Positions 8,185-59,632 of a stretch of DNA of 64,000 nucleotides are shown in pieces (position 1 is the stretch's first letter; each line of letters begins with the position of its first letter). The notes beneath the pieces were generated by a model that ran no database searches, was not told where the DNA came from, and saw only the letters and a list, made by a program, of their open reading frames with translations. The position numbers and the translations under genes were made by a program. Source of the stretch: Somniosus microcephalus (taxonomy: Eukaryota); NCBI GenBank assembly GCA_052327205.1, contig CM126219.1, positions 9,424,001 through 9,488,000 of the forward strand, given 5' to 3'.

Positions 8185-9220
8185 TGTCAGCGGTGGCTCA
8201 GTGGGCAGCACCCTCGCCTCGGAGTCAGAAGGTTGTGGGTTCAAGTCCCACTCCAGAGACTTGAACACAAAGTCTAGGCCGACACTCCAGGGCAGTAACT
8301 GAGGGAGCGCTGCACTGTCGGAGGTGCCGTCTTTCGGATGAGATGAAAAACCGAGGCCCCATCTGACACCTCAGGTGGATGGAAAAAGATCCCATGGCAC
8401 TATTTCAAAGAGCAGTGTCCTGGGCAATATTCATCCCTCAATCAACATCACAAACAGATTATCTGATCATTATCACGTTGCTGTTTGTGGGAGCTTGCTG
8501 TGCACAAATTGGCTGCCACGGATCCAGCTACAACAGTGACCGCACTTCAAAAGTACTTCATTGGCTGTAAAGCACTTTGGGATATCCTGAAACATAGAAG
8601 ATAGGAGTGGGCCATTCGGCCCCTCGAGCCTGTTCCGCCATTCAATGCGATCATGGCGGATCATCCAAATTCAGTACCCTGTCCCTGCTTTCTCCCCAGA
8701 TCCCATGATCCCCTTAGCCTCAAGAAATATATCTAACTCCTCCTTCAAAATATTTAATGAATTGGCCTCAACTGTCTTCTGTGGTAGAGAATTCCACAGG
8801 TTCACCACTCTCTGGGTGAAGAAATTCCTCATCTCTGTCCTAAATGGCTTACCCCTTATCCTGTGACCCCTGGTTCTGGACTTCCCCGACCATCGGGAAC
8901 ATCCTTCCTGCATCTAGTCCTGTTAGAATTTTATAAGTTTCAATGAGATCCCCTCTCATTCTTCTAAATTCTAGTGAATATAAGCCTAATCGACCCAATC
9001 TCTCTTCATACGTCATTCCTGCCATCCCAGGTATCAGTCTGGTGAATCTTCGCTGCACTCCCTCCATGGCAAGAACATCCTTCCTCAGATAAGGCGACCA
9101 AAACTGCACACAATACTCAAGGTGTGGTCTCACCAAGGCCCTGTACAACTGCAGCAAGACATCCTTGCTCCTGTACTGAAGTCGTGAAAGGCGCTATAGA
9201 AATGCAAGTCTTTCTTTCTT
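8185..9220 (+). mobile_element. SacSINE1-like DeuSINE hosting a CR1 insertion
   Basis: Head at 8185, tail at 9179-9220. Confidence 0.85.
8592..9178 (-). mobile_element. CR1 3' fragment inserted into a SacSINE1
   Basis: Encodes LYRALVRPHLEYC; flanked by a CTGAA duplication, with the SINE resuming at 9179. Confidence 0.88.
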
Positions 9221-16400: not shown

Positions 16401-16712
16401 GTGTTGGCTATGACGAGGCCATGTTCTAAGCATTTCGACAGGAGGAGGGTACTGTTGGAGTTGGCTTCACCTACCCCATCTCTGCCAATCACACCTCTCC
16501 AGATTTATCCCTCAACCAACATTACTAAAAAACAGATGATATGGTCTTTATCACATTGCTGTTTGTGGGAGCTTGCTGTGCGCAAATTGGCTGCTGCGTT
16601 TCCTACATTACAACACAGTGACTACACTTCAGAAAGTACTTCATTGGCTGTAAAGCGCTTTCGAGTGTCCAGTGGTCGTAAAAGGCGCTATAGCAATGCA
16701 AGTCTGTCTTTT
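13482..16712 (+). mobile_element. SacSINE1-like DeuSINE hosting an RTE insertion
   Basis: SINE halves at 13482-13747 and 16501-16712. Confidence 0.85.
13748..16500 (-). mobile_element. RTE-clade (BovB-like) LINE, 5'-truncated, young
   Basis: ORF 14684-16492 carries the endonuclease C-terminus (WQHPRSKHWHLLDYV, WTDH) and RT (GVKQGC, YADD). It continues in frame at 13802-14671 after a single TAA, ends in a C2H2-like motif (CPTC...HLRTH), and has an (AG)n tail. Confidence 0.93.
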
Positions 16713-25661: not shown

Positions 25662-26350
25662 AGAAAGAAAGACTTGCATTTCTATAGCACCTTTCACAAC
25701 CACCGGACGTCTCACAGAATCACAGAAACCTCACAGTGCAGATAGAGGCCATTTCGGCCCATCGAGCCTGCACCGACACATATCCCACCCGATCCCCGTA
25801 AACCCTACACCAACACATATCCCACCCTATCCCCGTAACCCCACGTATTTAATCCCCCTAACACTAAGGGTCAATTTATCATAGCCAATCAACGTAACCC
25901 GCACATCTTTGGACTGTGGGAGGAAACCGGAGCACCCGAAAGCACTTTACAGCCAATGAAGCACTTTTTAAAGTGCAGTCACTGTTGTAATGTGGGTAAC
26001 GTGGCAGCCAATTTGCGCACAGCAAGCTCCCACAAACAGCAATGTGATAATGACCTGTTTTTGTTATGTTGGTTGAGGGATAAATATTGGCCCAGGACAC
26101 CAGGGATAACTCCCCTGATTTTCTTCGAAATAGTGCCATGGAATCTTTTACGCCAACCTGAAAGAGCAGACGGGGCCTGGGTTTAACGTCTTATCTGAAA
26201 GGCGGCACCTCCGACACTGCAGCACTCCCTCAGCACTGCACTGGAGTGTCAGCTGAGATTTTTGTGCTCAAGTCTCTGGAGTGGGACTTGAACCCACAAC
26301 CTTCTGACTCAAGAGGAGAGAGTGCTACCCACTGAGCCACAGCTGACACA
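25662..26350 (-). mobile_element. SacSINE1-like DeuSINE with a partial HE1 inserted (25713-25938)
   Basis: Reverse-complement match to the other copies. Confidence 0.85.
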
Positions 26351-27197
26351 GTGGCCAAGAAGGGGGATGGAATTGGTGGTTCGGCTAAGGAGTTTGTGAT
26401 GAGGTACACAGATGATGTCTTTGGTCTTCTCAATGTTTAACTGGGGGAAATTGTGGTTCATTCAAGACTGGATGGAGGAGTGGCAGGGGGGCGGGCACTG
26501 TAGCTGAGGAGAGGGAACCATTTAGACTATCAACTAGCATGGGGGCCAGGAAGGATGGTTGGGTGGTCAGCAGTTTAGTGGGAATAGGATCGAGAAAGCA
26601 GGAGGTGAGTCTCAGGAACAAGATGAGCTCAGAGAGGGCATGAGGGGAGATAGGAGGGAAACTAGAAAAAGATGCGAGTTCAGGGCTAGGGCGTGGGGGG
26701 GAACTTTGGCTGGGTGGGCTAGGAGAAGGGAGGGAAGCGGCAGAGGCAGTTGAATGGATGGTCCTTATCTGAGGATGTTCTTGCCATGGAGGGAGTGCAG
26801 CGAAGATTCACCAGACTGATACCTGGGATGGCAGGAATGACGTATGAGGAGAGATTGGGTCGATTGGGCTTATACTCGCTGGAGTTTAGAAGAATGAGAG
26901 GGGATCTCATTGAAACTTATAAAATTCTAACAGGACTAGACAGACTAGATGCAGGAAGGATGTTCCCGATGGCGGGGAGTCCAGAACCAGGGATCACAGT
27001 CTAAGGATAAGGGGTAAACCATTTAGGACAGAGATGAGGAGGAATTTCTTCACCCAGAGAGTGGTGAACCTGTGGAATTCTCTACCACAGAAGGCAGTTG
27101 AGGCCAATTCATTAAATATATTCAAGAAGGAGTTAGATATATTTCTTAAGGCTAAAGGGATCAAGGGATATGGGGAGAAAGCAGGAACAGGGTACTG

Positions 27198-28453: not shown

Positions 28454-28712
28454 GTGGAGGAGGTAGGGGAGAGGAGTTCAAGGAGAAGTGGAGAAGAGAA
28501 GCCGGGGGTTATTTTTGCATTCCAGGATGACAGACTGGGAGTGGAACCTGGGACTTTCTTGTTCTGTTTGATTCAATAACATGCCAAGATTTCAATGACT
28601 CATTATTTACACAACCCAGAAGGGAGGTTCTCTGTACTGCTCCTCCACAGTATGGATCTGCATTTTGAAACCGCATGTTGTTGGTGAGGAAGTGCCAGCT
28701 CTTGTTCCAAAG

Positions 28713-29170
28713 TGTCAGTCGTGGCTCAGTGGTTTGCACCCTCGCCTCCGAGTCAGAAGCCACTCCAGAGACATGAACACAAAAATCTAGGCTGACACTC
28801 CAGTGCAGTACTGAGGGAGTGCTGCACTGTCAGAGGTGCCGTCTTTCGGATGAGACATTAAACCGAGCCTCCGTCTGCCCTCTCGGGTGGACGTAAAAAA
28901 TCCCACTGCACTATTTCGAAGATGAGTTAGGGGAGTTCTCCCCAAGTGTCCTGCGGCCAATATTTATCACTCAATCAACATCACTAAAACAGATTATCTG
29001 GTCATTATCACATTGCTGTTTGTGGGAGCTTGCTGTGTGCAAATTAGCTGCCGCGTTTCCTACATTACAACAGTGACTACACTTCAAAAAGTACTTCATG
29101 CTTTAAAGCGCTTTGGGACATCTGGTGGTTGTGAAAGGCGCCTTAGAAATGCAAGTCTTTTTTTTCTTTC
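28713..29170 (+). mobile_element. SacSINE1-like DeuSINE
   Basis: Near full-length match to the other copies. Confidence 0.85.
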
Positions 29171-32770: not shown

Positions 32771-33634
32771 CCCAGCCACTAGGGGCACTGCACCATCCCG
32801 CCACTAGGGGCACTGCACCACCCAGCCACTAGGGGCACTGCACCATCCCGCCACTAGGGGCACTGCACCACCCAGCCACTAGGGGCGCTGCACCACCCAG
32901 CCACTAGGGGCGCTGCACCACCCAGCCACTAGGGGCGCTGCACCACCCAGCCACTAGGGGCGCTGCACCATCCTGCCACTAGGGGCGCTGCACCACCCAG
33001 CCACTAGAGGCACTGCACCACCCAGCCACTAGGGGCACTGCACCACCCAGCCACTAGGGGCGCTGCACCACCCAGCCACTAGAGGCACTGCACCACCCAG
33101 CCACTAGGGGCACTGCACCACCCAGCCACTAGGGGCGCTGCACCACCCAGCCACTAGGGGCGCTGCACCACCCAGCCACTAGGGGCGCTGCACCACCCAG
33201 CCACTAAGGGCGCTGCACCACCCAGCCACGAGGGGCACTGCACCATCCCGACACTAGGGGCACTGCACCACCCAGCCACTAGAGGCACTGCACCACCCAG
33301 CCACTAGGGGCACTGCACCATCCCGCCACTAGGGGCACTGCACCACCCAGCCACTAGGGGAGCTGCACCACCCAGACACTAGAGGCGCTGCACCACCCAG
33401 CCACTAGGGGCGCTGCACCACCCAGCCACTAGAGGCGCTGCACCACCCAGCCACTAGGGGCGCTGCACCACCCAGCCACTAGGGGCGCTGCACCACCCAG
33501 CCACTAGGGGCGCTGCACCACCCAGCCACTAGGGGCGCTGCACCACCCAGCCACTAGGGGCGCTGCACCACCCAGCCACTAGGGGCGCTGCACCACCCAG
33601 CCACTAGGGGCGCTGCACCACCCAGCCACTAGGG
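32771..33634 (+). repeat. 25-bp minisatellite, left arm (~34 units)
   Basis: Unit CCCAGCCACTAGGGGCGCTGCACCA. Confidence 0.95.
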
Positions 33635-33904
33635 TGCGTGGTCCTGAATGATGGAGGATACCGTTCACTATTCAGACCTTGCTGCAGTACTATCATGGTC
33701 CCATGATAAAGTTTCATCAGCAGAGCTGACATCTGATGATTACAATTGAAATGTAACAGAATACACTGGACTCCCAGTTGGGAGATGGGTATTTAAATCT
33801 CAGCTTCACTGACGTCAGCACGTAGGTTTCCTAGAAGGCTAAGACCACAAACATGATCTGAAGGATGGCAGGGAAGATGGGGTGGAGGACAAAGGGAAGT
33901 GTAG

Positions 33905-34536
33905 AGTGGCTGGGTGGTGCAGTGCGCCCCTAGTGGCAGAATGGTGCAGTGCCCCTAGTGGCTGGGTGGGTGCAGTGCCCCTAGTGGCTGGGTAGGTGTA
34001 GTGCCCCTAGTGGCAGGATGGTGCAGTGCCCCTAGTGGCAGGATGGTGCAGTGCCCCTAGTGGCTGGGTGGTACAATGCCTCTAGTGGCGGGATGGTGCA
34101 GTGTCTTTAGTGGTGGGATGGTGCAGTGCCCCTCGTGGCAGGATGGTGCAGTGCCCCTAGTGGCAGGATGGTGCAGTGCCCCTAGTGGCAGGATGGTGCA
34201 GTGCCCCTAGTGGCTGGGTGGTACAATGCCTCTAGTGGCGGGATGGTGCAGTGCCTCTAGTGGCGGGATGGTGCAGTGCCTCTAGTGGCGGGATGGTGCA
34301 GTGCCCCTAGTGGTGGGATGGTGCAGTGCCTCTAGTGGCGGGATGGTGCAGTGCCTCTAGTGGCGGGATGGTGCAGTGCCCCTAGTGGCAGGATGGTGCA
34401 GTGCCCCTAGTGGCGGGATGGTGCAGTGCCTCTAGTGGCGGGATGGTGCAGTGCCTCTAGTGGCGGAATGGTGCAGTGCCCCTAGTGGCGGGATGGTGCA
34501 GTGCCCCTAGTGGCTGGGTGGTGCAGTGCCCCTAGT
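33905..34536 (-). repeat. 25-bp minisatellite, right arm (~25 units), inverted relative to the left arm
   Basis: Unit CCCCTAGTGGCRGGATGGTGCAGTG is the reverse complement of the left-arm unit family. Confidence 0.95.
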
Positions 34537-37524: not shown

Positions 37525-37749
37525 GTCAGGTTCGAGATCCCTGCGCCAGCCAAGGTAAGCACCGGGTAGTGGAGGCTTCTGGACAGGATGAAGAAATAAG
37601 TATCATTGGAGGCTGAGCCAGTCGGACGATCCTTGTGCACCTCCTGGTAGCTGAGCTCTAATGACAAAGCCTGCGAGCAGGTCCGAGCTCTGGCTCAGAG
37701 ACACTGTGTGGAGAGAAGTCTAGTGCATAACTCCATCTTTGTAGCAATA

Positions 37750-40366
37750 AGAACATAAGAAATAGGAGCAGGAGTAGGTCAATCGGCCCCTCGAGCCTAC
37801 TCCGCCATTCAATAAGATCATGGCTGATCTGATCCTAACCTCAAATCTACTTTCACTCTCCATCCCACCTGAACCCATGTGATCTCCCGGGAGAGGCGAA
37901 AAACCAGATAAAAAACCAGATAAAAAACCCAATGTGCCAATTTGGGAGAAAAAATCTGGGAAATTCCTCTCCGACCCATCTAGGCGATCGAAACTCATCC
38001 AGGAGATCACTCTGTCCCTGTATTTCCTACAGTACTTACCTTCTGTAAAAGGTGATCTCCACCCCAGCTAGGAACAGGCCCAATTTACTCTTGAAGGACA
38101 CCTAGCTGGCAGCCTGTTCGATGTCTCCACTAATCCCTGTGAATAGAACCATCTCCTGAAATCTAACACAGAATTAGAACACAAGAAGTAGGAGCAGGAC
38201 CAGGCTACACGGCCCCTGGGCCCGCTCCGCCACCCACAGGGCCATGACCGATCCAAACCTAGCCTCATGTCCGATTTCCTGCCCGCTCCCCGTAACCCCT
38301 AATTCCCCTTACTTCTAGGAAACTGTCTATTTCTGTTTTAAATTTATTTAATGATGTAGCTTCCACAGCTCTCTGGGGCAGCAAATTCCACAGACCTACC
38401 ACCCTCTGAGTGAAGAAGTTTCTCCTCATCTCAGTTTTGAAAGAGCAGCCCCTTATTCTAAGATTATGCCCCCTAGTTCTAGTTTCACCCATCATTGGGA
38501 ACATCTTCCCCGCATCCACCCGATCCAACCCCTTCACAATCTTATATGTTTCAATAAGATCACCTCTCATTCTTCTGAACTCCAATGAGTAGAGTCCCAA
38601 TCTACTCAACCTCTCCTCATATGTCAACCCCCTCATCCCCGGGATTAACCGAGTGAACCTTCTTTGTACTGCCTCGAGAGCAAGTATGTCCTTTCTTAAG
38701 TATGGACACCAAAACTGTATGCAGTATTCCAGGTGCGGTCTCACCAATACCTTGTATAACTGCAGCAATACCTCCCTATTTTTATATTCCATCCCCCGAT
38801 AAATGCAATAAAAGCCAACATTCCATTGGCCTTCTTGCTCACCTGCTGCACCTGCATACTAACCTTTTGTGTTTCGTGCACCAGGACCCCCAGATCCCTT
38901 TGTACTGCAGTACTTTCCAGTTTCTTGCCATTAAGATAATAACTTGCTCTATGATTTTTCCTGCCAAAGTGCATAACCTCACACTTTCCAGTATTATATT
39001 CCATCTGCCAAATCTCTGCCCACTTACTTAGCCTGTCTATGCCCCTTTCCAGGTTTTTTATGTCCTCCTCACTCACTACTTTCCCTCCCATCTTTGTATC
39101 ATCTGCAAACTTTGATATGTTACACTCAGTCCCTTCCTCCAAATCGTTGATATAGATTGTAAAGAGTTGGGGTCCCAGCACGGACCCCTGCGGAACACCA
39201 CTAGTTACTGATTGCCAGTCTGAGAATGAACCATTTATCCCAACTCTCTGCTTTCTGTTAGATAGCCAATCCTCCACCCATGCCAGAATATTACCCCCAA
39301 TCCCGTGATTTTTTATCTTGAGCAATAATCTTTTGTGTGGCACCTTGTCAAATGCCTTTTGGAAGTCTAAATACACTACGTCCACTGGTTCCCCTTTATC
39401 CACCCTGTATGTTACGTCCTCAAAGAACTCAAGCAAATTTGTCAAACATGACTTCCCCTTCGTAAAACCATGCTGACTTTGTCCTATTAAATTATGTTTA
39501 TCCAAATGTCCCGTTACTGTCTCCTTAATAATCGACTCTAAAATTTTACCAGCCACAGATGTTAGGCTAACTGGTCTGTAGTTTCCAGCCTTCTGTCTAT
39601 TACCCTTTTTAAATAAGGGTGTTACATTAGCAGTTTTCCAATCTGCCGGGACCTTTGCTGAGTCCAGGGAGTTTTGGAAAATTATTACCAATGCATCCAC
39701 AATCCCTACCGCCACTTCCCTCAAGACCCTAGGATGTAAGCCATCAGGTCCAGGGGATTTATCCGCCTTAAGTCCCATTATTTTACCGAGTACCACTTCC
39801 TTAGTGATTTTAATCGTATTTAGCTCCTCCCCCCCTAGAGCCCCCTGTTTGCCCAGTGTTGGGATATTCTTAGTGTCCTCTACTGTAAAGACTGATACAA
39901 AATATTTGTTCTGCGTTTTTGCCATCTCCATGTTTCCCACCATTAATTTCCCGGTCTCATCCTCTAAGGGACCAACATTTACTTTAGCCACCCTTTTTCT
40001 TTTTATATAACTATAGAAACTCTTGCTATCTGTTTTTATATTTTTTGCTAATTTACTTTCATAATCTATCTTCCCTTTCTTAATCAATCTTTTAGTTATT
40101 TTTTGCTGTCTTTTAAAGACTTCCCAATCTTCTATCCTCCCACTAGATTTGGCTACCTTATATGCCCTTGTTTTTAGTCGGATACTATCCTTTATTACTT
40201 TACTTAGCCACGGATGGCTGTCTTTTCTTTTACACCCTTTTTTCCTCAGTGGAATATATATTTTTTGAAAGTTGTAAAATAACTCCTTGAATGTACACCA
40301 CTGATCATGTACTGTCTTACCCTTTAATCTATTTTCCCAGTCCACTCTAATCAATTCCGCTCTCAT
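37750..40366 (-). mobile_element. CR1/HER1 LINE, 5'-truncated, with extended double 3' tail
   Basis: RT motifs (KSPGPDG, DFQKAFDKV, GVPQGSVLGP, FADD), a frameshift near 38795, and a TTCTTATG-type tail. Confidence 0.93.
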
Positions 40367-40802
40367 ACATAAAAAGACTTGCATTTCTATAGCGGCTTGC
40401 ATGACCACCGGAAGTCTCAAAGCGCTTTACAGCCAATGAAGTACTTTTTGAAATGTAGTCACTGTTGTAATGTGGGAAACGCAGCAGCCAATTTGCGCAC
40501 AGCAAGCTCCCACAAGCAGCAACATGATAATGACCAGATAATCTGTTTTAGTGATGCTGATTGAGGGATAAATATAAGCCCCAGGACACCGGGGAGAACG
40601 CCCCTGCTCTTCTTCAAAATAGTGCCATGGGATCTTTTATATGCACCTGAGAGAGCAGATGGGGCCTCGGTTTAATGTCTCATCCGAAAGACGGCACCTC
40701 CAACAGTGCAGCACACCCTCATCACTGCACTGGAGTGTCAGCCTAGCTTTTGTGCTCAAGTCTCTGGAGTGGGACTTGAACCCACAGCCTTCTGACTCAG
40801 AG

Positions 40803-42482: not shown

Positions 42483-44039
42483 AAATACAAGTTCTTTCTT
42501 TCTATGCTGTTTATCTATTGAGTTACAGTATTTATCACCAGCTAAACAGCAAGTCCAGGAACAGTGAAATTAGCAGAAACAGTTAACATAGTTATTTAGC
42601 TTTAATTTGTCTTTTTATTTAGAAAAAGATTTTCCATCTTCAAAGTTTTTAAGTATGATTTCTCACAAGGTAGGTTCAGACAAAGGTTTGCAATTGTTGG
42701 AACTTTTTGAGCATTTTTCCACGGAAAAGATTTGGAATAAAAAGTTACATTGAAGGATTGTGTTTTAAAAACAAAGTGTATTCGCACAAATTTTAAAAAG
42801 GCACTGAGACAATAAATGGTTAAAACACTAAGAACTCGGCTTTGCTGTTGCTTTCCGAAAGACTCTAAATGATAAGCCATTCATTAGTCTGTCTCCCAAT
42901 CGATAAACATCTCACACCCATTGTGTTGGGAAGTCTCTGATCCCAAGCGCTTGATACCCTCTGGCTGTAAACACAGGGTGGATTAAAAGAGAGACACAGG
43001 CAGTCAGTCAGGTTTTAAAAGAAAGCTTTGACCAGGTTCAGTGAGAGAATGCACGAGGTAGGTTAGGAATTATTTTAAATAAGGCAAGACAGCCCTCTGA
43101 TGTTGGAAGCATAATGTGTTCATTATGTGAGGACAAGTTGTAGCGATTGAATTTAGTGAGTCCAATCATAACTCTTGCTCTGTAAGCAGCTATACAATTC
43201 ATATCTGGTCTTGTCTCACCGATGTTTCCTTGAATCAGCTTTGAGATCGGAGAGGCTCATGGGGAAACATGGGCGAAAGACACAAATATCTGGTTCAGGT
43301 CACAAGGGGGTAATATTTTTACATCCTGGACCATCGTTTAGTTAGATATTAGGTAATATGGGCATACCCCTAAATATAAGACGCTGAGACCACTTACAGG
43401 AGTGACTAGTACCACTGTACCCGAGAGAATATCCAAGGCAAGACTTAAACTTGTAATAAACAACCCTTGGCTCATTTGATCTCATCGTTCTAGAATACTA
43501 ACCTACCACCTTCCGATTATAGCTTCGATATTCCTTGGAACAGGCAAACAGGTCTCAGTTTTAATATCTCATAGAACAATGCAGCTCTCCCCCGGTACTG
43601 CGCTGAAGTGCCAGCCTAGATTATGTGCTTATGTCCTGGAATCCACAACTCGGAGACGAGAGAGCTACCACCAACTCAGGTTGGCACACCAAAACCTGAG
43701 CTTTCTTACACTGAGCTCAGGGAAGTCAGGAATGCCGATAAGTGAGAGGGAAATGTATTAAGCATCAGTCACTGGAGAAAGTACAGGAGTGAGATTTATA
43801 ATCAAAAGACCAACTGGTGCTGTGTTTAAATTAGGTGACGTTTTTAAACCATGGGTCAGCCTTACCTGGCTTGATTCTATGTGTAATGGCGAGTGGCACT
43901 CTGTAACTTAAAAGACTGGGAAAGTACAAAAAAAAGCTGTATTTATATTTGAATGACAGAATAACGTGACCAAACAAAAAATAAAAACAGAAAATGCTGG
44001 AAATACACCGGGTATGATGTATGTGTGTGCCCTTCATCA

Positions 44040-46230
44040 GGTCTGGGAGGGTGTGGGCACGGTGCAAGGTCTGGAAGGGTGTGGGTACAGTGCAAGGTCT
44101 GGGAGGGTGAGGGTGTGGGCACAGTACAAGGTCTGGGAGGGTGAAGGTGTGGGCACAGTGCAAGGTCTGGGAGGGTGAGGGTGTGGGCACAGTGCAAGGT
44201 CTGGGAGGGGAGGGTGTGGGCACAGTGCAAGGTCTGGGAGGGTGTGGGCACAGTGCAAGGTCTAGGAGGCTGAGGGTGTGGGCACAGTGCAAGGTCTGGG
44301 AGGGTGAGGGTGTGGGCACAGTGCAAGGTCTGGGAGGGTGTGGGTGTGGGCACAGTGCAAGATCTGGGAAGGTGTGGGCACAGTGCAAGGTCCGGGAGGG
44401 GGAAGGTGTGGGCACAGTGCAAGGTCTGGGAGGGTGTGGGCACAGTGCAAGGTCCTGGAGGGGGAAGGTGTGGGCAGAGTGCAAGGTCTAGGTGGGTGAG
44501 GGTGTGGGCACAGTGCAAGGTCTGGGAGGGTGAGGGTGTGGGCACAGTGCAAGGTCTGGGAGGGGAGGGTGTGGGCACAGTGCAAGGTCTGGGAGGGTGA
44601 GGGTGTGGGCACAGTGCAAGGTCTGGAAGGGTGAGGGTGTGGGCACAGTGCAAGGTCTGGGAGGGGGAAGGTGTGGGCACAGTGCAAGGTCTGGGAGGGT
44701 GAGGGTGTGGGCAGAGTGCAAGTCCTGGGAGGGTGAGGGTGTGGGCAGAGTGCAAGTCATGGGAGGGTGAGGGTGTGGGTACAGTGCAAGGTCTGGGGGG
44801 GGGTGAGGGTGTGGGCACAGTGCAAGGTCTGGGAGGGTGTGCGCACAGTGCAAGGTCTGGGAGGGTGTGGGCACAGTGCAAGGTCTGGGAGGGTGAGGGC
44901 ACAGTGCAAGGTCTGGGAGGGTGTGGGCACAGTGCACGGTCTGGGAGGGTGAGGGCACGGTGCAAGGTCTGGGAGGGTGAGGGCATGGTGCAAGGACTGG
45001 GAGGGTGAGGGCACGGTGCACGGTCTGGGAGGATGAGGGCACGGTGCACGGTCTGGGAGGGTGAGGGCACGGTGCAAGGTCTGGGAGGGTGAGGGCACAG
45101 TGCAAGGTCTGGGAGGGTGAGGGCATGGTGCAAATTCTGGAAGGGTGTGGGCACAGTGCAAGTTCTGGGAAGGTGAGGGCACAGTGCAAGGTCCGGGAGG
45201 GAGAAGGTGTGGGCAGAGTGCAAGGCCTGGGAGGGTGAAGGTGTGGGCACAGTGCAAGGTCTGGGAGGGTGTGCGCACAGTGCAAGGTCTGGGAGGGTGA
45301 GGGCACAGTGCAAGGTCTGGAAGGGTGTGGGCAGAGTGCAAGGTCTGGGAGGGTGAGGGCACAGTGCAAGGTCTGGGAGGGTGTGCGCACAGTGCAAGGT
45401 CTGGGAGGGTGTGCGCACAGTGCAAGGTCTGGGAGGGTGTGGGCACAGTGCAAGGTCTGGGAGGGTGTGGGCACAGTGCAAGGTCTGGGAGGGTGTGGGC
45501 ACAGTGCACGGTCTGGGAGGGTGAGGGCACGGTGCAAGGACTGGGTGAGGGCGCGGTGCACGGTCTGGGAGGGTGAGGGCACGGTGCACGGTTTGGGAGG
45601 GTGAGGGCATGGTGCAAGGTCTTAGAGGGTGAGGGCACGGTGCAAGGTCTTAGAGGGTGAGGGCACGGTGCAAGGTCTGGGAGGGTGAGGGCATGGTGCA
45701 AGGACTGGGAGGGTGAGGGCACAGTGCAAGGTCTGGGAGGGTGAGGGCACAGTGCAAGGTCTGGAAGGGTGTGGGCACAGTGCAAGTTCTGGGAAGGTGG
45801 GGGAACAGTGCAAGGTCCGGGAGGGAGAAGGTGTGGGCAGAGTGCAAGGCCTGGGAGGGTGAGGGTGTGGGCACAGTGCAAGGTCTGGGAGGGTGTGGGC
45901 ACAATGCAAGGTCTGGGAGGGTGAGGGTGTGGGCAGAGTGCAAGGTCTGGGAGGGTGAGGGTGTGGGCACAGTGCAAGGTCTGGGAGGGTGAGGGTGTGG
46001 GCACAGTGCAAGGTCTGGGAGGGTGTGGGCACAGTGCAAGGTCTGGGAGGGTGAGGGTGTGGGCACAGTGCAAGGTCTGGGGGGGTGTGGGCAGAGTGCA
46101 AGGTCTGGGAGGGTGAGGGTGTGGGCAGAGTGCAAGGTCTGTGAGGGTGTGGGCAGAGTGCAAGGTCTGTGAGGGTGTGGGCAGAGTGCAAGGTCTGGGA
46201 GGGTGAGGGTGTGGGCACAGTGCAAGTCTG
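44040..46230 (+). repeat. G-rich minisatellite (28/34-bp units) directly upstream of ST7L
   Basis: Unit GGTCTGGGAGGGTGAGGGTGTGGGCACAGTGCAA plus 28-bp variants lacking one GGG tract. Confidence 0.95.
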
Positions 46231-46239
46231 CACAGGGTG

Positions 46240-46740
46240 ATGCCTCCATCCATCCACCCAGTATGAAGGTTTCCCTCTGCCTGGCGGAGGACTCCTCCTG
46301 CATCCCACAATCCCTCAGGCTGGTCAGACAAACATGGCGGACGGGGGCTCGGTGGGATTCGTTGAGCGGCTGAAACGGGGCGTCAGTTGGTCGTGGACCT
46401 ACCTGTGGGCGCTCTGGTTCGTGCTGGTGCTCGGCCTCCTCTACATCCTGCGGGCGCCGCTCAAGCTGCACGACAACCTGGGCGCAGGTAAGCGGCGAGC
46501 CGGCGAGACAGCCCCCGGAGCCCGGCCTCTCCGCCCCCCTCAGCTGGCCCCAGTCCCGGCCCCGGTACCGGCCTCCCTGCCCCGCACCGAGCCGCCGCCG
46601 CCCCTCTCACACGGCCACAGCCGCCCTCGGATGGTCCCCCGCCCCCTTGTCGGGGCCGCTGTCCGGCCCGGGTGACGGGAGCGGGCGGGACTCGCACCCG
46701 CGGGGCCGCCATCTTCCCCAGTGACGTCGGCACCCTGGAC
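46240..46740. promoter_or_regulatory. CpG island / promoter-proximal region of ST7L
   Basis: CpG-rich exon 1 and start of intron 1. YY1-like AACATGGCGG at the ATG and GCCGCCATCTT at 46705-46715; CRE-like TGACGTCG at 46722-46729. Confidence 0.7.
46334..46487 (+). CDS. ST7L: Suppressor of tumorigenicity 7-like protein, coding exon 1
   Basis: Encodes [51 protein letters not shown], matching the ST7-family N-terminus (WSWTYLW..WF...YILR.PLK..DNL). It ends in a phase-1 donor GCAG|GTAAGC, has Kozak context AACATGG and lies in a CpG island. Exon 2 was not seen before 64000. ST7L rather than ST7 is inferred from orientation relative to CAPZA. Confidence 0.85.
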
Positions 46741-49590
46741 ACTGGCACCGGGATAGAGGGTCACTGGCACCGGGATAGAGGGACACTGGCACCGGGATAG
46801 AGGGTCACTGGCACCGGGATAGAGGGACACTGGCACTGGGATATAGACACTGGATTATAGAGATAGGCACTGTCACTGGGATATAGAGATAGGCACTGGA
46901 TTATAGGCACTGTCACTGGAATAAATAGCTAGGTGCTGGAATATAGGCACTGGCTCTATTATAGAGCTAGGCGCTGGGATATAGAGATAGGCACTGGATT
47001 ATAGACAGGCATTGGAGAATATAGAGAGACGCACTGTAATATAGATAGGCACTAGAATATAGCCACTGGCACACCCAGTCACTGGAATATAGTCAGGCAC
47101 TGGCACACACACAGTCACTGCCATATAGCATTGGCACAAATGGTTACTGGAATATAGCACTGGCACACGGTCACTGGAATATAGTCAGGCACTGGCACAC
47201 AGTCGCTGGAATATCGTCGGGCACTGGCACACAATCACTGGAATATAGTCAGGCACTGGCACATGGTCACTGGAATATAGTCGGGCACTGGCACACGGTC
47301 ACTGGAATATAGTCAGGCACTGGCACACAGTCACTGGAATATAGTCAGGCACTGGCACACGGTCACTGGAATATAGTCAGGCACTGGCACACGGTCACTG
47401 GAATATAGTCAGGCACTGGCACACTCACTGGAATATCGTCGGGCACTGGCACACAATCACTGGAATATCGTCGGGCACTGGCACACAATCACTGGAATAT
47501 AGTCAGGCACTGGCACACGGTCACTGGAATATAGTCGGGCACTGGCACACGGTCACTGGAATATAGTCAGGCACTGGCACACGGTCACTGGAATATAGTC
47601 AGGCACTGGCACACAGTCACTGGAATATAGTCAGGCACTGGCGCACGGCCACTGGAATATAGTCAGGCACTGGCACACGGTCACTGGAATATAGTCGGGC
47701 ACTGGCGCACGGTCACTGGAATATAGTCAGGCACTGGCACACGGTCACTGGAATATAGTCGGGCACTGGCGCACGGGCACTGGAATATAGTCAGGCACTG
47801 GCACACAGTCACTGGAATATAGTCGGGCACTGGCACACGGTCACTGGAATATAGTCAGGCACTGGCGCACAATCACTGGAATATAGTCAGGCACTGGCAC
47901 ACGGTCACTGGAATATAGTCGGGCACTGGCACACGGTCACTGGAATATAGTCAGGCACTGGCACACGGTCACTGGAATATAGTCGGGCACTGGCACACGG
48001 TCACTGGAATATAGTCGGGCACTGGCAAACACAGTCACTGGAATATAGTCAGGCACTGGCACACGGTCACTGGAATATAGTCAGGCACTGGCACACGGTC
48101 ACGAATATAGTCAGGCACTGGCTCACGGTCACTGGAATATAGTCGGGCACTGGCACACGGTCACTGGAATACAGTCCGGCACTGGCGCACGGTCACTGGA
48201 ATATAGTCAGACACTGGCACACGGTCACTAGAATATAGTCGGGCACTGGCACACGGTCACTGGAATATAGTTGGGCACTGGCGCACGGTCACTGGAATAT
48301 AGTCGGGCACTGGCACACGGTCACTGGAATATAGTCGGGCACTGGTGCACGGTCACTGGAATATAGTCAGGCACTGGCACACGGTCACTGGAATATAGTC
48401 GGGCACTGGCGCACGGTCACTGGAATATAGTCGGGCACTGGCGCACGGTCACTGGAATATAGTTGGGCACTGGCACACGGTCACTGGAATATAGTCAGGT
48501 ACTGGCACACGGTCACTGGAATATAGTCGGGCACTGGCCCACACGGCCACTGGAATATAGTCGGGCACTGGCACACAGTCACTGGAATATAGTCAGGCAC
48601 TGCCACACAGTCACTGGAATATCGTCGGGCACTGGCACACGGTCACTGGAATATAGTCGGGCACTGGCGCACGGTCACATGGAATATAGTCGCGCACTGG
48701 CACACGGTCACTGGAATATAGTCGGGCACTGGCACACGGTCACTGGAATATAGTCGGGCACTGGCGCACGGTCACTGGAATATATTCGGGCACTGGCGCA
48801 CGGTCACTGGAATATAGTCGGGCACTGGCGCACGGTCACTGGAATATCGTCAGGCACTGGCGCACGGTCACTGGAATATAGTCAGACACTGGCACACGGT
48901 CACTGGAATATAGTCGGGCACTGGCACACGGTCACTGGAATATAGTCGGGCACTGGCACACGGTCACTGGAATATAGTCAGGCACTGGCACACGGTCACT
49001 GGAATATAGTCAGGCACTGGCGCACGGTCTCTGGAATATAGTCAGGCACTGGCACACGGTCACTGGAATATAGTCGGTCACTGGAATATAGTCGGGCACT
49101 GGCGCACGGTCACTGGAATATAGTTGGGCACTGGCGCACGGTCACTGGAATATAGTCGGGCACTGGCGCACAGTCACTGGAATATTGTCAGGCACTGGCA
49201 CACGGTCACTGGAATATAGTCGGGCACTGGCACACGGTCACTGGAATATAGTCGGGCACTGGCACACGGTCACTGGAATATAGTCGGGCACTGGCGCACG
49301 GTCACTGGAATATAGTCGGGCACTGGCACACGGTCACTGGAATATAGTGAGGCACTGGCACACGGTCACTGGAATATAGTCAGACACTGGCGCACGGTCA
49401 CTGGAATATAGTCAGGCACTGGCACACAGTCACTGGAATATAGTTGGGCACTGGCACACGGTCACTGGAATATAGTCGGGCACTGGCACACGGTCACTGG
49501 AATATAGTCGGGCACTGGCACACGGTCAATGGAATATAGTCGGGCACTGGCACACGGTCACTGGAATATAGTCAGGCACTGGCACACATA
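46740..49590. repeat. Minisatellite in ST7L intron 1 (22-bp units grading into 32-bp units)
   Basis: About 4 copies of CACTGGCACCGGGATAGAGGG(T/A), then a degenerate zone, then GGCACTGGCACACGGTCACTGGAATATAGTCR. Confidence 0.95.
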
Positions 49591-51875: not shown

Positions 51876-52335
51876 TGTCAGTCGTGGCTCAGTGAATAGC
51901 ACTCTTTCTCGCCTCTGAGTGGGTTCAAATCCCACTCCAGAGACTTGAGCATATAATGCAGGCTGACACTCCCAGTGCAGTGCTGAGGGAGTGCTGCACT
52001 GCCGGAGGCGCTGTCTTTTGGAAGAGATGTTGAACTGAGGCCCCGTCTGCCCTCTCAGGTGGACATTATAGATCCCATGGCACTATTTCGAAGAAGAGCA
52101 GGGAGTTCTCCCCGGTGTCCTGGGACCAATATTTATCCCTCTATCAACATCACTAAAACAGATGATCGGGTCATTATCACATTGCTGTTTATGGGAGCTT
52201 GCTGTGCGCAAATTGGCTGCCGCGTTTCCTACATTACAACAGTGACTACACTTCAGAAAGTACTTCATTGGCTGTAAAGTGCTTTGGGGCGTCCTGAGGT
52301 CGTGAAAGGCGCTGGAGAAATGCAAGTCTTTTTTT
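51876..52335 (+). mobile_element. SacSINE1-like DeuSINE
   Basis: Near full-length match to the other copies. Confidence 0.85.
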
Positions 52336-55300
52336 CCCCTTGTCCTTAACTCGGGAACATAGATGCCGATTGTAGCATCGTATCTACCACTCATGAGTGA
52401 GCTCAGTGAACTCAGCACAAACTGGCAGGAAAACCCATCTGGCTCATTTCCACACTACACACTTGGAACTTATGAAATGACCCATCAGGAGAGCCTGGTA
52501 TGGTCTTTTGATAATACATTTGTACAACGCCGGAGAGAGCAGTGACACAGAGTTGCCTTCCTGTACCAAGTACTGTACATATTTCATCCCCAGCTTTCTC
52601 AAAGGTACTGCCTTTTGCTAGGGTATGGTGGCACAGGTACTGGCAGCCTTCGGGTACTATTGGATAGTGAGTGTTAGTAGACTGTTTGACCACGAGGGGC
52701 ATCACAGCCAAGCTTGACAGTGTCCCCACATGATGTCCACATGCATGCATTTTCCAGTAAGTTGTTGCATAGTGATCAGGAACAAGGACCCTGGCCGATT
52801 TCCCCCCCCCCCCAACTCCCAGCTGTTGCCCTAACTTGGAGCATCTCGCTCTTTCTTGTTCTTCCTCACCCTTGTACTGTAATACTTTTTCTGATCCATT
52901 TACTCCGTTTCTGATTGACTTGAGAAAATGAAGATTATTTAGAGCTCATTCTATCTGGGGCCATTAGAGAAATTATTAATGTTTTTGAGTAGTTTTCACG
53001 GGTTGCTTCAAAATGCATTTTCTAAGTCGACCTGTAGGAAACCTCAGGTGGTTGGTTAAAAATGCTTGAAAGGATAAATATATTTTGGACTCTGAAAATG
53101 CACCCTGCTGGTTTCTTTCCATCAATGTGTCCTTAGTAACAATCTTCACGCAGTTATCCACTCATCACCTTGATGCACTTTTTGTTACTTCTACTGCCCT
53201 TGTATTTAAACGGTTTAGGTTTGTGTGGTGATGCTGGTGGTGGGGCGGAGGGAGGGTTGTGCACTTTGATCCTTTTAGCGCGCCGACTGTGTCCTGTGTT
53301 TCCTCCATGTGTTTTATGCAAAGTGATTCAGATTTCCTCACCTTATCGCTGTGTTTTTTTTTAATGAGTAACCATTAAGAAATGGGAACCTGTTGTGTGG
53401 GGAATGTAGGCATGCGTCCATGTTCCCCAAGCACCCTGATGGCTCTATCTTTAATATTACCACTCATCTTATAATGTCCCAGTTACTGTGTCGTGCTCCA
53501 TGGGCAGGCAGCTAACACACTCCTGCACAAGCAGTGATGTTGGGTTTACTAGAAAGTGAGTAGGGACGCCTGTTGTCTTGGCCTTTCCTTGTGATCAGAA
53601 ACTTGTCATGCGGAGACTCTATTTTGTATCCACAACAAGATAATGGAGAAAGTTACAAGCTGACTCTGAACCATTACATCAAGGCAAGTCACGACAGTAG
53701 ATCAAGTGGGCATAGCCTAAAACTGGTGAAAGGCCAATTTAGGATAAATACCAGAGGGAACTCCTTCGAATAAACAACAACCACTTGCATTTATACAGCG
53801 CCTTTAACGTAGTAAAACGTCCCAAGGCGCTGCACAGGAGCGTAATTAAGTGAAATTTGACGCCGAGCCACATAAGGAGATATTAGAACAGATGACCAAA
53901 AGCTTGGCCAAAGAGGTAGGTTTCAAGGAGCAACTTAAAAGAGAGAGAGGCAGAGAGTTTTAGGGAGGGAATTCCAGAGATTAGGGCCTAGGCAGCTGAA
54001 GGCACGGCTGCCACTGGTGGAACGATTAAAATCGGGAATGCGCAAGAGGCCAGGATTGGAGGAGCGCAGAGATCTTGGATGGTTGTAGGGCACGACTGAT
54101 CATCACTTGGAAGGTAGTTTCAGATACGGTACTGGAAGTAAAAACCTTATAGTGATTCAAGATCCAGTAATGATCTAATGGGGGTAGTGGGGTGGGGAGG
54201 GGGGGATCTGTAAGCTTCTTCCTAGTTGGGTGAAGTAAGAAGGGCCAAATGGCCTTCGCTTGTGAAGGATGCAGTTGAATGAAGGGATTTTACATGATAT
54301 GCGACTGGGTTTACATGCATCCTGCATTGTTTCACCAGCACTGTATGCCATTGACTTTAACAGGTTGTCTCAGGGGAACCCGCTTTGTGATGCGAACCAT
54401 AAGTAGGACTGGCTGAGAGCGGATGCTATTGAGTGTTGGTTGGGGCAGCAGAGTTGAGCTGATGCTGAAAGGTTGTTCATGGTCAGGTATAACGAGTTTA
54501 GTAGGTTATCTTACTTGTGATATTCGGCTGTGCCCAGGACCACAGACGTGGCATAAAGTAAGGGTAGGTTGGGATGGTGGCCTGGAAGAAGGGTAAGGGC
54601 TGCCTTCTTGGATTTCTCATTTCTCTGCCCGTTTTTGGATTTGGATATTTCATTGAACACATTGGACCTGAGGGATCAGATCATTTTACACCTCCTAGCA
54701 CTTATAAAATATTCGTACGATAAATGCATGACTCATTTCATCTCATGTAGTACAGTACTGTCGCCTTGTTTCATCTCTGGTACTGTGCCTAAATTGCTCT
54801 TCATGGAGTTGGTGAGGGAATTAAATATTGAAGTAGTTTTCAGGTGATACAAGAACAGAATGGAGCTGGAAGCAACTGTAATATGTGCATATTTCCCATG
54901 AATGGACCGAGGTGGTTATTGTGAGCACAGAAAGACCGAGGAGTTGACCTGGGCCAAGTTACAGAATTTCTTTACGCCTTGATGCGAGCTCCAGCTGATG
55001 GAGTCTGTGTGCGAGTGGTAAACATTCGCGGTGATGATAGCGCTCGAGAGCAAGTTTCACTGGCAAGAGAAACAACGTTTTTGGTTTCACTTCTGGCATT
55101 TCTCGGGGATTTTTTACATTGATGTACAAAATCTAGACGCTAGAAGCTCGGTTGTGCTTCTCCTGGCCTTGGTCTTGCCATTTCTTTCCTCAGTTACCAA
55201 GGGTTGAGTTTGGAATGGCCATCTTTGTCTCTTACACCATGCATGGTTTTGGGACATAATTGTTTCTGAAAGCAAGAAATGGTTTTTCAGTGTGCTATGC

Positions 55301-56439: not shown

Positions 56440-57612
56440 ATATTCATAAACCCAGATCCTCTCCATCACCAAGACAGCCTACTTGCACCTCCGAAACATC
56501 GCCTGTCTCCGCCTTGCCTCTGCCTCTGCCTCAGCTCATCTGCTGCTGAAACCCTCATCCATGCCTTTGTTACCTCTAGGCTCGACTATTCCAACACACT
56601 CCTGGCTTGTCTCCCACATTCCACCCTACATAAACTTCAGCTCATCCAAAACTCAGCTGCCCCGTGTCCTAACTCACACCCAGTCCCGTTCACCCATCAC
56701 CCCCGTGCTCACTGCCCCGTGTCCTAACTCGCACCCAGTCCCGTTCACCCATCACCCCCTGTGCTCACTGCCCCGTGTCCTAACTCACACCCAGTCCCGT
56801 TCACCCATCACCCCCTGTGCTCACTGCCCCGTGTCCTAACTCGCACCCAGTCCCGTTCACCCATCACCCCCTGTGCTCACTGCCCCGTGTCCTAACTCAC
56901 ACCCAGTCCCGTTCACCCATCACCCCCTGTGCTCACTGCCCCGTGTCCTAACTCACACCCAGTCCCGTTCACCCATCACCCCCTGTGCTCACTGCCCCGT
57001 GTCCTAACTCACACCCAGTCCCGTTCACCCATCACCCCCTGTGCTCACTGCCCCGTGTCCTAACTCGCACCCAGTCCCGTTCACCCATCACCCCCTGTGC
57101 TCACTGCCCCGTGTCCCAACTCGCACCCAGTCCCGTTCACCCATCACCCCCTGTGCTCACTGCCCCGTGTCCTAACTCGCACCCAGCCCCGTTCACCCAT
57201 CACCCCCTGTGCTCACTGCCCCGTGTCCTAACTCACACCAAGTCCCGTTCACCCATCACCCCCTGTGCTCACTGCCCCGTGTCCTAACTCACACCCAGTC
57301 CCGTTCACCCATCACCCCCTGTGCTCGCTGCCCCGTGTCCTAACTCACACCCAGTCCCGTTCACCCATCACCCCCTGTGCTCGCTGCCCCGTGTCCTAAC
57401 TCACACCCAGTCCCGTTCACCCATCACCCCCTGTGCTCGCTGACCTACATTGGCTCCCGGTCCGGCAACACCTCGATTTTCAAATTCTCATTCTTGTTTT
57501 CAAATCCCTCCCCATCTCTGTAATCTCCTCCAGCCCAATAACCCTCAGAGATCTCATCGCTCCTCCAATTCTGGCCTCTTGCACATCCCCGATTTTTATC
57601 GCTCCACCATCA
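56440..57612 (+). mobile_element. L2-clade LINE fragment containing the 56-bp expansion
   Basis: Encodes ETLIHAFVTSRLDYSN...LQLIQNSAA before the array and ADLHWLPV after it. Confidence 0.85.
56660..57441 (+). repeat. 56-bp tandem repeat (~14 copies) inside an L2 fragment
   Basis: Unit GCCCCGTGTCCTAACTCACACCCAGTCCCGTTCACCCATCACCCCCTGTGCTCACT, starting at 56714, 56770, 56826 and onward. Confidence 0.95.
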
Positions 57613-58184
57613 CTTGGAGCGGCGATGGGATCGGAGCTGTGAGAAATTGAAAATGATCACATTGGTCAGTGAGCGGTGCTGTTTTGGAGGCTTGGGTTGA
57701 GGAACTTTGTGACAGTGTCGAGTGGGCTTTTTTGTCCCCTTTTTAGGTCCACTCTGTTTGCCCCTCTCCCCTGGTTTATTAGTTCAAATCCTCTCACAAC
57801 CTTATTTACCCTCTCTACAAGTACATTGGTGCCGTTCAGGTAAAGACCATCCTGCCTGTAGAGCTTCCCCTGCCCCACAACTTGTCCCAAAATTTTAGGA
57901 CTCTGAAACTCCGTTCTGCACTATCTTTCTAGCTACACTTTGACGTGTCTAACCTGTTTCACCCTTCACTCTGTGGGAATATGAGTAATCCTCATATTAC
58001 CAATCTTTAGGTCTTGCACTTTTAGTCTCGAACATTTAGTCTAGACCACTAGCTCCTGGATATCTCTCCCCAACACCACCATCCTACTTCTTCCTACATC
58101 ATTGATGAACCATGACTTCTGGCTGGTTACATTCACTTCCACACCTTCTCTCAGCAAAATTTAACTTGGGGTCGGGGGGTGGAG

Positions 58185-59632
58185 AACATAAGAACATAAG
58201 AAATAGGAGCAGGAGTAGGCCAATCGGCCCCTCGAGCCTGCTCCGCCATTCAATAAGATCATGGCTGATCTGATCCTAACCTCAAATCTTCTATCACTCT
58301 CCATCCCCCTGAACCCATGTGATCTCCTGGGAGAGGCGAAAAACCAGATAAAAACCCAATGGCCAATTTGGGAGAAAAAATCTGGGAAATTCCTCTCCGA
58401 CCCATCTAGGCGATCGAAACTCGTCCAGGAGATCACTCTGTCCCTATATTTTCACAGTACTTACCTTCTGTAAAAGGTGATCTCCACCCCAGCCAGGAAC
58501 AGGAATAGAACCATCTCCTGAAATCTAACACAGAATTAGAACACAAGAAGTAGGAGCAGGACCAGGCTACACGGCCCCTGGGCCCGCTCCGCTACCCACA
58601 AGGCCATGACCGTTCCGAACCTAGACTCATGCCAAATTCCTGCCCGCTCCCCGTAACCCCTAATTCCCTTTACTTCTGGGAAACTGTCTATTTCTGTTTT
58701 AAATTTATTTAATGATGTAGCTTCCACAGCTTTCTGGGGCAGCAAATTCCACAGACCTACTACCCTCTGAGTGAAGAAGTTTTTCCTCATCTCAGTTTTG
58801 AAAGAGCAGCCCCTTATTCTAAGATTATGCCCCCTAGTTCTAGTTTCACCCATCATTGGGAACATCCTCACCGCATCCACCCGATCAAGCCCCCTCACAA
58901 TCTTATATGTTTCAATAAGATCGCCTCTCATTCTTCTGAACTCCAATGAGTAGAGTCCCAATCTACTCAACCTCTCCTCATATATCCACCCCCTCATCCC
59001 CGGGATTAACCGAGTGAACCTTCTTTGTACTGACTCGAGAGCAAGTATGTCTTTTCTTAAGTATGGACACCAAAACTGTATGCAGTATTCCAGGTGCGGT
59101 CTCACCAATACCTTGTACAACTGCAACAATACTTCCCTGTTTTTATATTCTATCCCCCTAGCAATAAAAGCCAACATTCCATTGGCCTTCTTGATCACTT
59201 GCTGCACCTGCATACTAACTTTTTGAGTTTTGTGCACCAGGACCCCCAGATCCCTTTGTACTACAGTACTTTCCAGTTTCTTGCCATTAAGATAATAACT
59301 TGCTCTATGATTTTTCCTGCCAAAGTGCATAACCTCACACTTTCCAGTATTGTATTCCATCTGCCAAATCTCTGCCCATTCACTTAGCCTGTCTATGTCC
59401 CTTTGCAGGTTTTTTATGTCCTCCTCACTCACTACTTTCCCTCCCATCTTAGTATCATCTGCAAACTTTGATATGTTACACTCGGTCCCCTCCTCCAAAT
59501 CGTTAATATAGATTGTAAAGAGTTGGGGACCCGGCACTGACCCCTGCGGAACACCACTAGTTACTGATTGCCAGTCTGAGAATGAACCATTTATCCCAAC
59601 TCTCTGCTTTCTGTTAGATAGCCAATCCTCCA
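58185..59632 (-). mobile_element. CR1/HER1 LINE 3' part, same subfamily as 37750-40366
   Basis: ORF 58536-59642 is an RT C-terminus (FADD), followed by the same extended 3' UTR. Confidence 0.93.

Follow-up and report, generated by a model that had tools for sequence, protein, structure and literature searches.

The window, a stretch of 64,000 nucleotides of Somniosus microcephalus DNA, holds two copies of a CR1 LINE, both on the minus strand, whose 3' ends contain a module resembling a double ENE. Copy 1 is 5'-truncated and retains the 3' part of ORF2, which encodes the reverse transcriptase (RT; PF00078), at 58627-59632 (-); a 1-nt deletion near the end of ORF2 makes the frame run on to 58536. 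Copy 2 (37747-40370, -) comprises ORF2 with its stop at 38267-38265, a proximal tail, an extension and a distal tail, and adjoins another repeat at about 40371. The preliminary description had assigned the module to a CR1 LINE, and we found that an RT-encoding ORF2 does lie upstream of it on the sense strand in both copies. The best named full-length ORF2 relatives come from Chiloscyllium, Leucoraja, Hypanus, Pristis, Mobula and Callorhinchus (65-70% identity), and bird and turtle proteins reach about 50%. Judged by these protein relatives, the element is a chondrichthyan CR1. The "shark CR1 lineage" proposed before was therefore right as to cartilaginous fish, but placement at the level of sharks lacks support from these relatives. 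The clade name CR1 itself is taken from the protein relatives and the tail rather than from a tree. CR1-like RTs 58% identical to the query also occurred in Proteus and Klebsiella records (P0026, P0030) on contigs of 1.6-1.7 kb; these are probably vertebrate contamination of the assemblies.

Several other repeats share the window. A second, different LINE (13492-16504, -) has a 606-aa RT-bearing frame, with a partial copy at 3087-3924. A repeat of about 420-460 nt, possibly a SINE, is abundant (40371-40802, 51876-52338, 28712-29165, 25933-26351, 8185-8590 and others), its copies being 70-87% alike, and one of them abuts the 5' end of CR1 copy 2. The longest open frames in the window stem from GC-rich minisatellite arrays at 10130-12750, 32771-34536, 44039-46240, 47050-49587 and 56652-57442, with periods of 32, 25, 28, 32 and 56, respectively.

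The 3' end of the module-bearing element differs from that of its neighbors. A single tail of about 90 nt directly follows the ORF2 stop in all 10 of the 10 other CR1-type 3' ends aligned from the window, whereas the two module-bearing copies have two tails: a proximal one after the ORF2 stop, then an extension with the module, then a distal one that closes both insertions. In copy 1, the proximal (native, ORF2-adjacent) tail lies at 58528-58629 (-), the extension at 58285-58527 (-) and the distal tail at 58184-58284 (-). The extension measures 243 nt in copy 1 and about 320 nt in copy 2, and it has no other copy in the window. Relative to the majority of the 10 single-tail ends, the proximal tail has decayed to 70-71% identity (70% in copy 1) and the distal tail remains at 90-93% (93% in copy 1); the single tails themselves range from 79 to 99%. 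The distal tail is canonical, with a stem-loop and terminal octamer repeats, and it is in these octamers (58199-58184 and 37758-37751) that the element ends, without poly(A). Hence, the two-tail arrangement is old, as the decay of the proximal tail shows, and the helices of the module are nonetheless intact.

CR1-type elements are described as inserting without poly(A) and having a 3' end in short tandem repeats; for zebrafish stringent LINEs, it is reported that ORF2 binds the tail stem-loop, which is needed for retrotransposition. By analogy, we infer that the role of the tail in reverse transcription has shifted to the distal tail.

Further traits of the 3' end concern its origin and pairing. 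The 34 nt before the distal tail (58285-58318, -) have a weak likeness to the last CR1 ORF2 codons (about 50% relative to the other ends); an origin of the distal tail in a short 3' fragment of a CR1 would predict this. In the decayed proximal tail (58528-58629 and 38166-38267, -), the outer stem of the CR1 tail hairpin, 8 bp long, survives. In copy 2, the 5' part of the proximal tail is predicted to form a 12-bp helix with the extension (38241-38230/38146-38135), and both inter-copy differences in the proximal-tail strand of this helix are pair-compatible. A 63-nt segment is present in copy 2 only (38079-38141, -); since predicted helices join it to shared sequence on either side, it is probably ancestral and was deleted in copy 1. 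For the two insertions we found no convincing target-site duplications (the best matches were 6-7 nt), and a search of the extension for a SINE or tRNA head found none. A family-specific poly(A) hexamer at the end of ORF2 was also discarded, as ATTAAA is present in 6 of 10 other CR1 3' portions, too.

The module occupies 58319-58436 of the minus strand in copy 1, i.e. the CR1 sense strand. Its sequence there and the second copy at 37879-38010 (-) were as previously described, and the distance to the element end, given before as about 130 nt, measured 131-132 nt in the two copies. For copy 1, free-energy minimisation returned the fold drawn earlier (-48.3 kcal/mol; z = -4.61), and 0 of 200 shuffles were equally stable. 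The 72-nt core alone had z = -3.69 (0 of 200 shuffles as stable), and its best fold made up 80% of the ensemble. At the base of the predicted fold, a 12-bp closing helix joins its 5' arm (58425-58436) to 58319-58330 (mean pairing probability 0.88-0.96). Above it, the ENE core (58331-58397, -) consists of a lower stem (58397-58392/58336-58331), a lower loop (58391-58386/58343-58337; 3 U and 5 U), a 6-bp middle stem (58385-58380/58349-58344), an upper loop (58379-58373/58354-58350; 5-6 U and 5 U) and an upper stem (58372-58368/58359-58355). When the complete 3' UTR was folded, mean pairing probabilities were 0.82-0.96 for the closing helix and for the three helices stacked above it, and the U residues of the two internal loops framed by these three helices were unpaired at 0.88-0.97, so this part of the description stands.

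The upper loop sets 5-6 U against 5-6 U between flanking stems of 6 and 5 bp in both copies, its first C being unpaired in the predicted fold. The lower loop is weak, with just three U on its 5' side. For the lower domain of a dENE, a bulge of 3-4 nt and an interrupted A-minor stem are described; in the module this domain has two extra nucleotides per strand and a stem broken after 6-7 bp by a side arm. This side arm, a hairpin at the junction above the closing helix (58398-58416, -), is indeed predicted, but it is weak (P 0.2-0.3) and missing from the centroid, so its G-U pair, put forward as evidence of strand, is poor evidence. Folding is not strand-specific either, since the plus strand folds equally well (z = -5.66); the case for the sense strand comes instead from the orientation of the element and from loops that are U-rich rather than A-rich. 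A sliding 118-nt scan gave z = -1.9, its windows being off register with the module. Rfam gave no gathering-level match in the 64-kb window; of five weak matches near the locus, none was an ENE and none was judged real.

Copy 2 carries an insertion in which the U tract of the upper 3' side and the 3' strand of the middle stem occur a second time. The 12-nt duplication noted before is present and forms, with one additional U, an insertion of 13 nt; copy 2 differs from copy 1 also by a 1-nt insertion in the apical loop and by two substitutions. In the predicted fold of copy 2, the upper loop is kept and the lower loop is lost owing to the 13-nt insertion, although either loop can still form in alternative registers. 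The two-loop design is thus predicted in full for copy 1, and for copy 2 the predicted fold has the upper loop only.

We found that such loops are rare under a null model. In the 64-kb window, a strict helix-U loop-helix descriptor matched two single loops and one nested double, all within the two modules, and null windows gave 0.17 singles per window and nested doubles in 0 of 100 windows. With a loose descriptor, 486.4 Mb of order-5 Markov sequence held 20 nested doubles; both descriptors were written after the motif had been seen, so that all these figures are orders of magnitude. The order-5 Markov null was trained without the inserts. At the 3' end of the second LINE (13492-16504), the ENE-like descriptor had no match.

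A further trait, the presence of C after the 5' U tract and G before the 3' U tract (C/G polarity), was derived from published ENE sequences and not from the present motif. Both loops of the module have this polarity in both copies, and none of the 20 null doubles in 486.4 Mb has it at both loops. Among 14 loose single U loops in the window, it was present in all 5 from the modules and in 0 of the 9 others. The module thus has some of the features of a dENE, namely tandem U loops, a PAN-like upper domain and C/G polarity.

The two copies allow a test of selection. Their ORF2 sequences, compared over 1005 nt, show 19 changes among 206 synonymous sites and 19 among 781 non-synonymous ones (Ka/Ks 0.26, P = 4e-5); by degeneracy classes, Ka/Ks is 0.36 and Ks is 0.08. 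Hence, the copies derive from separately replicating sources, and the differences between their UTRs are informative. On this comparison of two copies in the window, from which all our evolutionary inference comes, we counted 2 substitutions among the 118 nt of the module, where the synonymous rate predicts 9.4 (P about 0.01 when uncertainty in the rate is taken into account; 0.05 by Fisher's test against fourfold sites alone). The distal tail resembles the module in this respect (2 of 97) and the proximal tail does not (5 of 100); the whole extension has 7 of 243 (P = 0.009). The deficit is spread about equally over the extension; hence, the U loops are not singled out by this small divergence test. 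One of the two substitutions in the module is unpaired and the other turns an A-U into a G-U pair in the closing helix. In the UTR helices, 6 of 8 changes are pair-compatible versus 4.0 expected (P = 0.056), and there is no two-sided compensatory change between the two copies. The module is a real, non-random RNA structure that is apparently under selection.

We also looked for homologues in collections without shark genomic DNA, so the blanks are uninformative on distribution. A pattern scan of bacterial and archaeal genomes gave one match, a tRNA-adjacent, terminator-like sequence in a Halothiobacillus MAG that was judged to be chance; plasmids gave no match, and phages gave two short matches judged to be chance. 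Of the searches of protein sets with translated UTR frames, one matched four repetitive long proteins, another gave no candidate, and a third retained none of 5071 candidates at E 10; exact look-ups gave 0 of 2.

The preliminary description overlooked the duplicated tail, a U1 site and the intron-like alternative that this site raises. A perfect U1-binding (5' splice-site) 9-mer lies at 58459-58467 (-), is identical in copy 2 (38034-38042) and sits 23 nt upstream of the module in both copies. The chance of such a 9-mer is about 0.005 per 300 nt on one strand, and the window holds 4 matches versus 2.9 expected. In copy 1, the site is predicted to form the 10-nt loop of a 7-8 bp hairpin (58459-58475); in copy 2 (38034-38050), this hairpin competes with another fold. 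Downstream, a pyrimidine tract with an AG resembles a 3' splice site (58326-58343, -) and would close a 138-nt intron (58464-58327); when the 1011 YAG-G sites are ranked by their pyrimidine content, this site with its CAG-G falls within the first 25. Polyadenylation can be inhibited by a perfect 5' splice site located in a last exon, which counts against an ENE here.

Hence, the extension might be a U2-type intron that is structured and for the most part retained, or else just a U1 module; splicing or U1 binding would then be selected, and the U tracts would be a hidden branch point and pyrimidine tract. The donor that is perfect in both copies and loop-exposed in copy 1 speaks for this, as does the tract with CAG-G placed 138 nt downstream. 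However, the acceptor AG is inside the closing helix in copy 1 and is lost in copy 2 while the helix is kept, and the segment that would be the intron was retained in both of the two retrotransposed copies. Moreover, the acceptor is paired with P 0.96-1.0, and releasing it takes a fold less stable by 5.4-7.5 kcal/mol. Any ENE should have a 3' strand rich in pyrimidines, and an intron would leave the in-register 5' U tracts and the C/G polarity unexplained. We therefore regard the intron or U1 explanation as unlikely.

A 9-nt direct repeat (58477-58485 and 58319-58327, -) brackets the donor site and the module. Its reading as a target-site duplication was not supported, there being no terminal inverted repeats and no A tail inside. 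The upstream copy of the repeat could pair with the 5' closing arm but is energetically disfavored in this. A conformational, splice-controlling switch through the second GGAGATCAC at 58485-58477 was rejected at equilibrium, with fractions of 6e-6 and 1e-4. In simulated elongation, the switch fold through the second closing-arm 9-mer was only transient, and this in copy 2.

The even conservation bears on another explanation, in which the fold is a protein-binding or packaging scaffold for ORF1, ORF2 or a host U-binding protein and no triplex with poly(A) forms. The whole extension is helix-rich and about equally conserved, stringent LINEs use 3' stem-loops for protein recognition, and this element has no poly(A) signal, all of which a scaffold would accommodate. 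The distal tail that is common to all the other ends already holds a recognition stem-loop, however, and protein binding presumably has no need of two-sided U loops with the polarity of an ENE. A scaffold of this kind is improbable in our view.

The module could also be a passenger: a fragment derived from a different RNA, conceivably a genuine ENE of a retrovirus, transposon or lncRNA, that was trapped between the tails and is carried along only on account of the inactive proximal tail. In favor of this, decay of the native tail makes copying of the extension obligatory, copy 1 has lost 63 nt of it, copy 2 carries a disruptive insertion, and the signal of conservation is modest. These indels may, however, postdate insertion, and the substitution rate of the module is below the synonymous rate. 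Furthermore, all helices are intact against about 30% drift in the neighboring tail, which a passenger would explain only if the module arrived recently. We consider it quite improbable that the module is a mere passenger. Finally, a chance fold or a DNA-level inverted repeat without RNA function is barely credible: both strands fold equally well, the descriptors are post hoc, and at the measured null rate some hundreds of chance doubles lacking the polarity would be expected in a genome of several gigabases, but inverted duplication sets A opposite T rather than T opposite T at four in-register tracts, no polar double arose in the null sequence, and the position and strand suit an RNA element.

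We return to the ENE. The fold, its position, its rarity under the null model, the features it shares with three validated ENEs and the modest conservation, i.e. the reduced divergence between copies, all lend weight to the ENE-like reading, and the module is probably a poly(A)-binding ENE, by analogy with these RNAs, with the upper loop as the convincing part. Speaking against this reading are the lack of two-sided covariation between the only two copies, a middle stem of 6 bp where plant dENEs have 10-11 bp, the weakness of the lower loop and the side hairpin, the loss of the lower loop from the predicted fold of copy 2, the missing Rfam match and the absence of a poly(A) signal from the element. 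A true double-domain clamp is less certain, and the upper domain alone would suffice. Hence, the RNA-stabilising ENE module first proposed gains ground, and its "double" part is less secure than its upper domain. Poly(A) binding, stabilisation and polyadenylation of the element RNA are likewise what the analogy leads us to infer.

The order of events may have been as follows. A structured extension closed by a second CR1 tail was added to the 3' end of a CR1 lineage of a cartilaginous fish, presumably by capture through read-through or a template switch. The native tail then decayed, and the distal tail, which is still canonical and forms the end of both insertions, would serve reverse transcription as in stringent-type LINEs.

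The source of a poly(A) tail is the weak step. Neither AATAAA nor ATTAAA occurs between the module and the element end, and A runs there do not exceed 3; the nearest genomic AATAAA lies 408 and 914 nt beyond the ends of the two copies. With no signal in the element past the module, a tail would require read-through at the source locus, and the signal used would most likely be a genomic one beyond the source element. Such a tail could double back and form U.A-U triples in the upper U-rich loop. The lower loop and the G-C-rich stems would make additional contacts to poly(A), and the docked tail would slow deadenylation and decay and so leave more template RNA. U1 affects cleavage and polyadenylation. 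Speculatively, the upstream U1 site might help a long intronless transcript escape premature cleavage, with the acceptor hidden in the closing helix.

A wider proposal, which we offer tentatively and consider doubtful as a whole, is that a vertebrate LINE inserting without poly(A) captured a double ENE by 3' extension and that its 3' end was remodelled to accommodate this module. Such a clamp would stabilise the RNA, hide the poly(A) tail and present the stem-loop and repeats of the distal tail in a loop, ready for target-primed reverse transcription, and the exposed U1 site with the masked acceptor would mimic an unremoved intron.

ENEs are known from viruses and from MALAT1/NEAT1. In reviews, transposon ENEs are described from plants, fungi, slime mould and stickleback retroviruses and are strongly tied to LTR elements, and the review sections consulted name the stickleback retrovirus as the only animal mobile element with an ENE. 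Our base for comparing ENEs and LINEs was formed by PMC12501189, PMC7583470, PMC13541005, PMC10855403, PMC3747384, PMC4176376 and PMC2734521. The literature searched, seen in part and with the primary catalogue of about 200 transposon ENEs outside its coverage, yielded no ENE in a LINE, in CR1 or in a shark. In the portions available of a 2026 survey of vertebrate CR1-group elements, "triple helix" and "secondary structure" were absent (PMC13343379); the same text puts CR1-group elements at 22-34% of shark and ray genomes (PMC13343379). Hence, the novelty plausibly lies in a known kind of RNA element, the ENE, in a new class of host element.

If the wider proposal is true, non-LTR retrotransposons would gain their first ENE, one with a compact dENE geometry and a 6-bp spacer. 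It would also be direct evidence for polyadenylated CR1 RNAs under selection against deadenylation. Little is known of the finishing and stability of CR1-group RNA, and a selected poly(A) clamp would show that the tail matters; it would extend the arms race over deadenylation in which Evade takes part to vertebrate LINEs. Sister families with a single tail and without the module in the same genome provide a natural experiment, and the module offers a short candidate for a stability element whose geometry differs from that of the solved dENE.

Among the known systems, the ENE of MALAT1 and MEN-beta resembles the present module as a U-rich internal loop in a vertebrate RNA, but it needs an encoded A-rich strand and a tRNA-like end, neither of which was found here. 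We excluded a blunt triplex of the MALAT1 type because the longest A run is 2-3, ARAGORN gave 0 genes and Rfam gave no match. The stickleback retrovirus ENE is likewise an ENE of an animal mobile element, but its host is of the LTR/retroviral kind. With the stringent tails of CR1/L2 elements (ZfL2, UnaL2 and shark HER1/HE1), the present element shares an ordinary stem-loop with short repeats as its distal tail. Ordinary CR1-type elements, however, have one tail directly after the ORF2 stop, whereas here two tails surround an extension of 243-320 nt.

Three validated ENEs, PAN, TWIFB1 and Evade, were compared by eye with the module from the sequences in paper supplements. Every loop of all three has the C/G polarity, as in both present loops. 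TWIFB1 and Evade have CUC after the upper 5' U tract, as here, and PAN and TWIFB1 have G, five U and A on the upper 3' side, as here. The KSHV PAN ENE is like the upper domain in setting five to six U against five U, in its 3' side of GG-U5-AU-C and in the G-C-rich stem below. PAN differs in having a single domain and in being a viral lncRNA with its own poly(A) site; also, C-G pairs sit immediately on top of the PAN loop, whereas in the module two additional nucleotides lie before the predicted upper stem.

Evade (Copia93 of Arabidopsis) has four U tracts in two loops between the ORF and the 3' end of a retrotransposon, one tract of three U, and an upper-domain U tract followed by CUCCCA, all as in the module. 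In contrast, Evade is an LTR element, polyadenylation of its transcript takes place in the LTR, its middle stem has 11 bp versus 6 bp here, and its short tract is in the upper loop rather than in the lower loop. The Evade ENE is reported to stabilise the RNA and raise transposition, and mutating either loop or the flanking G-C pairs abolished the triplex transition.

The dENE of TWIFB1, from the mRNA of a rice hAT transposon, corresponds in having two U-rich loops around a duplex, five-U 3' tracts and a place in a transposon 3' UTR. Its host is a plant DNA transposon and the present host a LINE, its middle stem has 10 bp versus 6 bp here, and it has an A-rich 3-nt bulge after the lower 3' tract where the module has CG and not A. 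Unlike TWIFB1, the module has a side arm and a 12-bp closing helix below. The length of the middle stem bears on whether a single poly(A) strand could thread both loops, and a review also names, for the dENE, a conserved adenosine triad and a pocket motif for the 3' end of poly(A). In TWIFB1, most of the activity is attributed to the upper domain, and in the present module, too, the upper domain is the better match.
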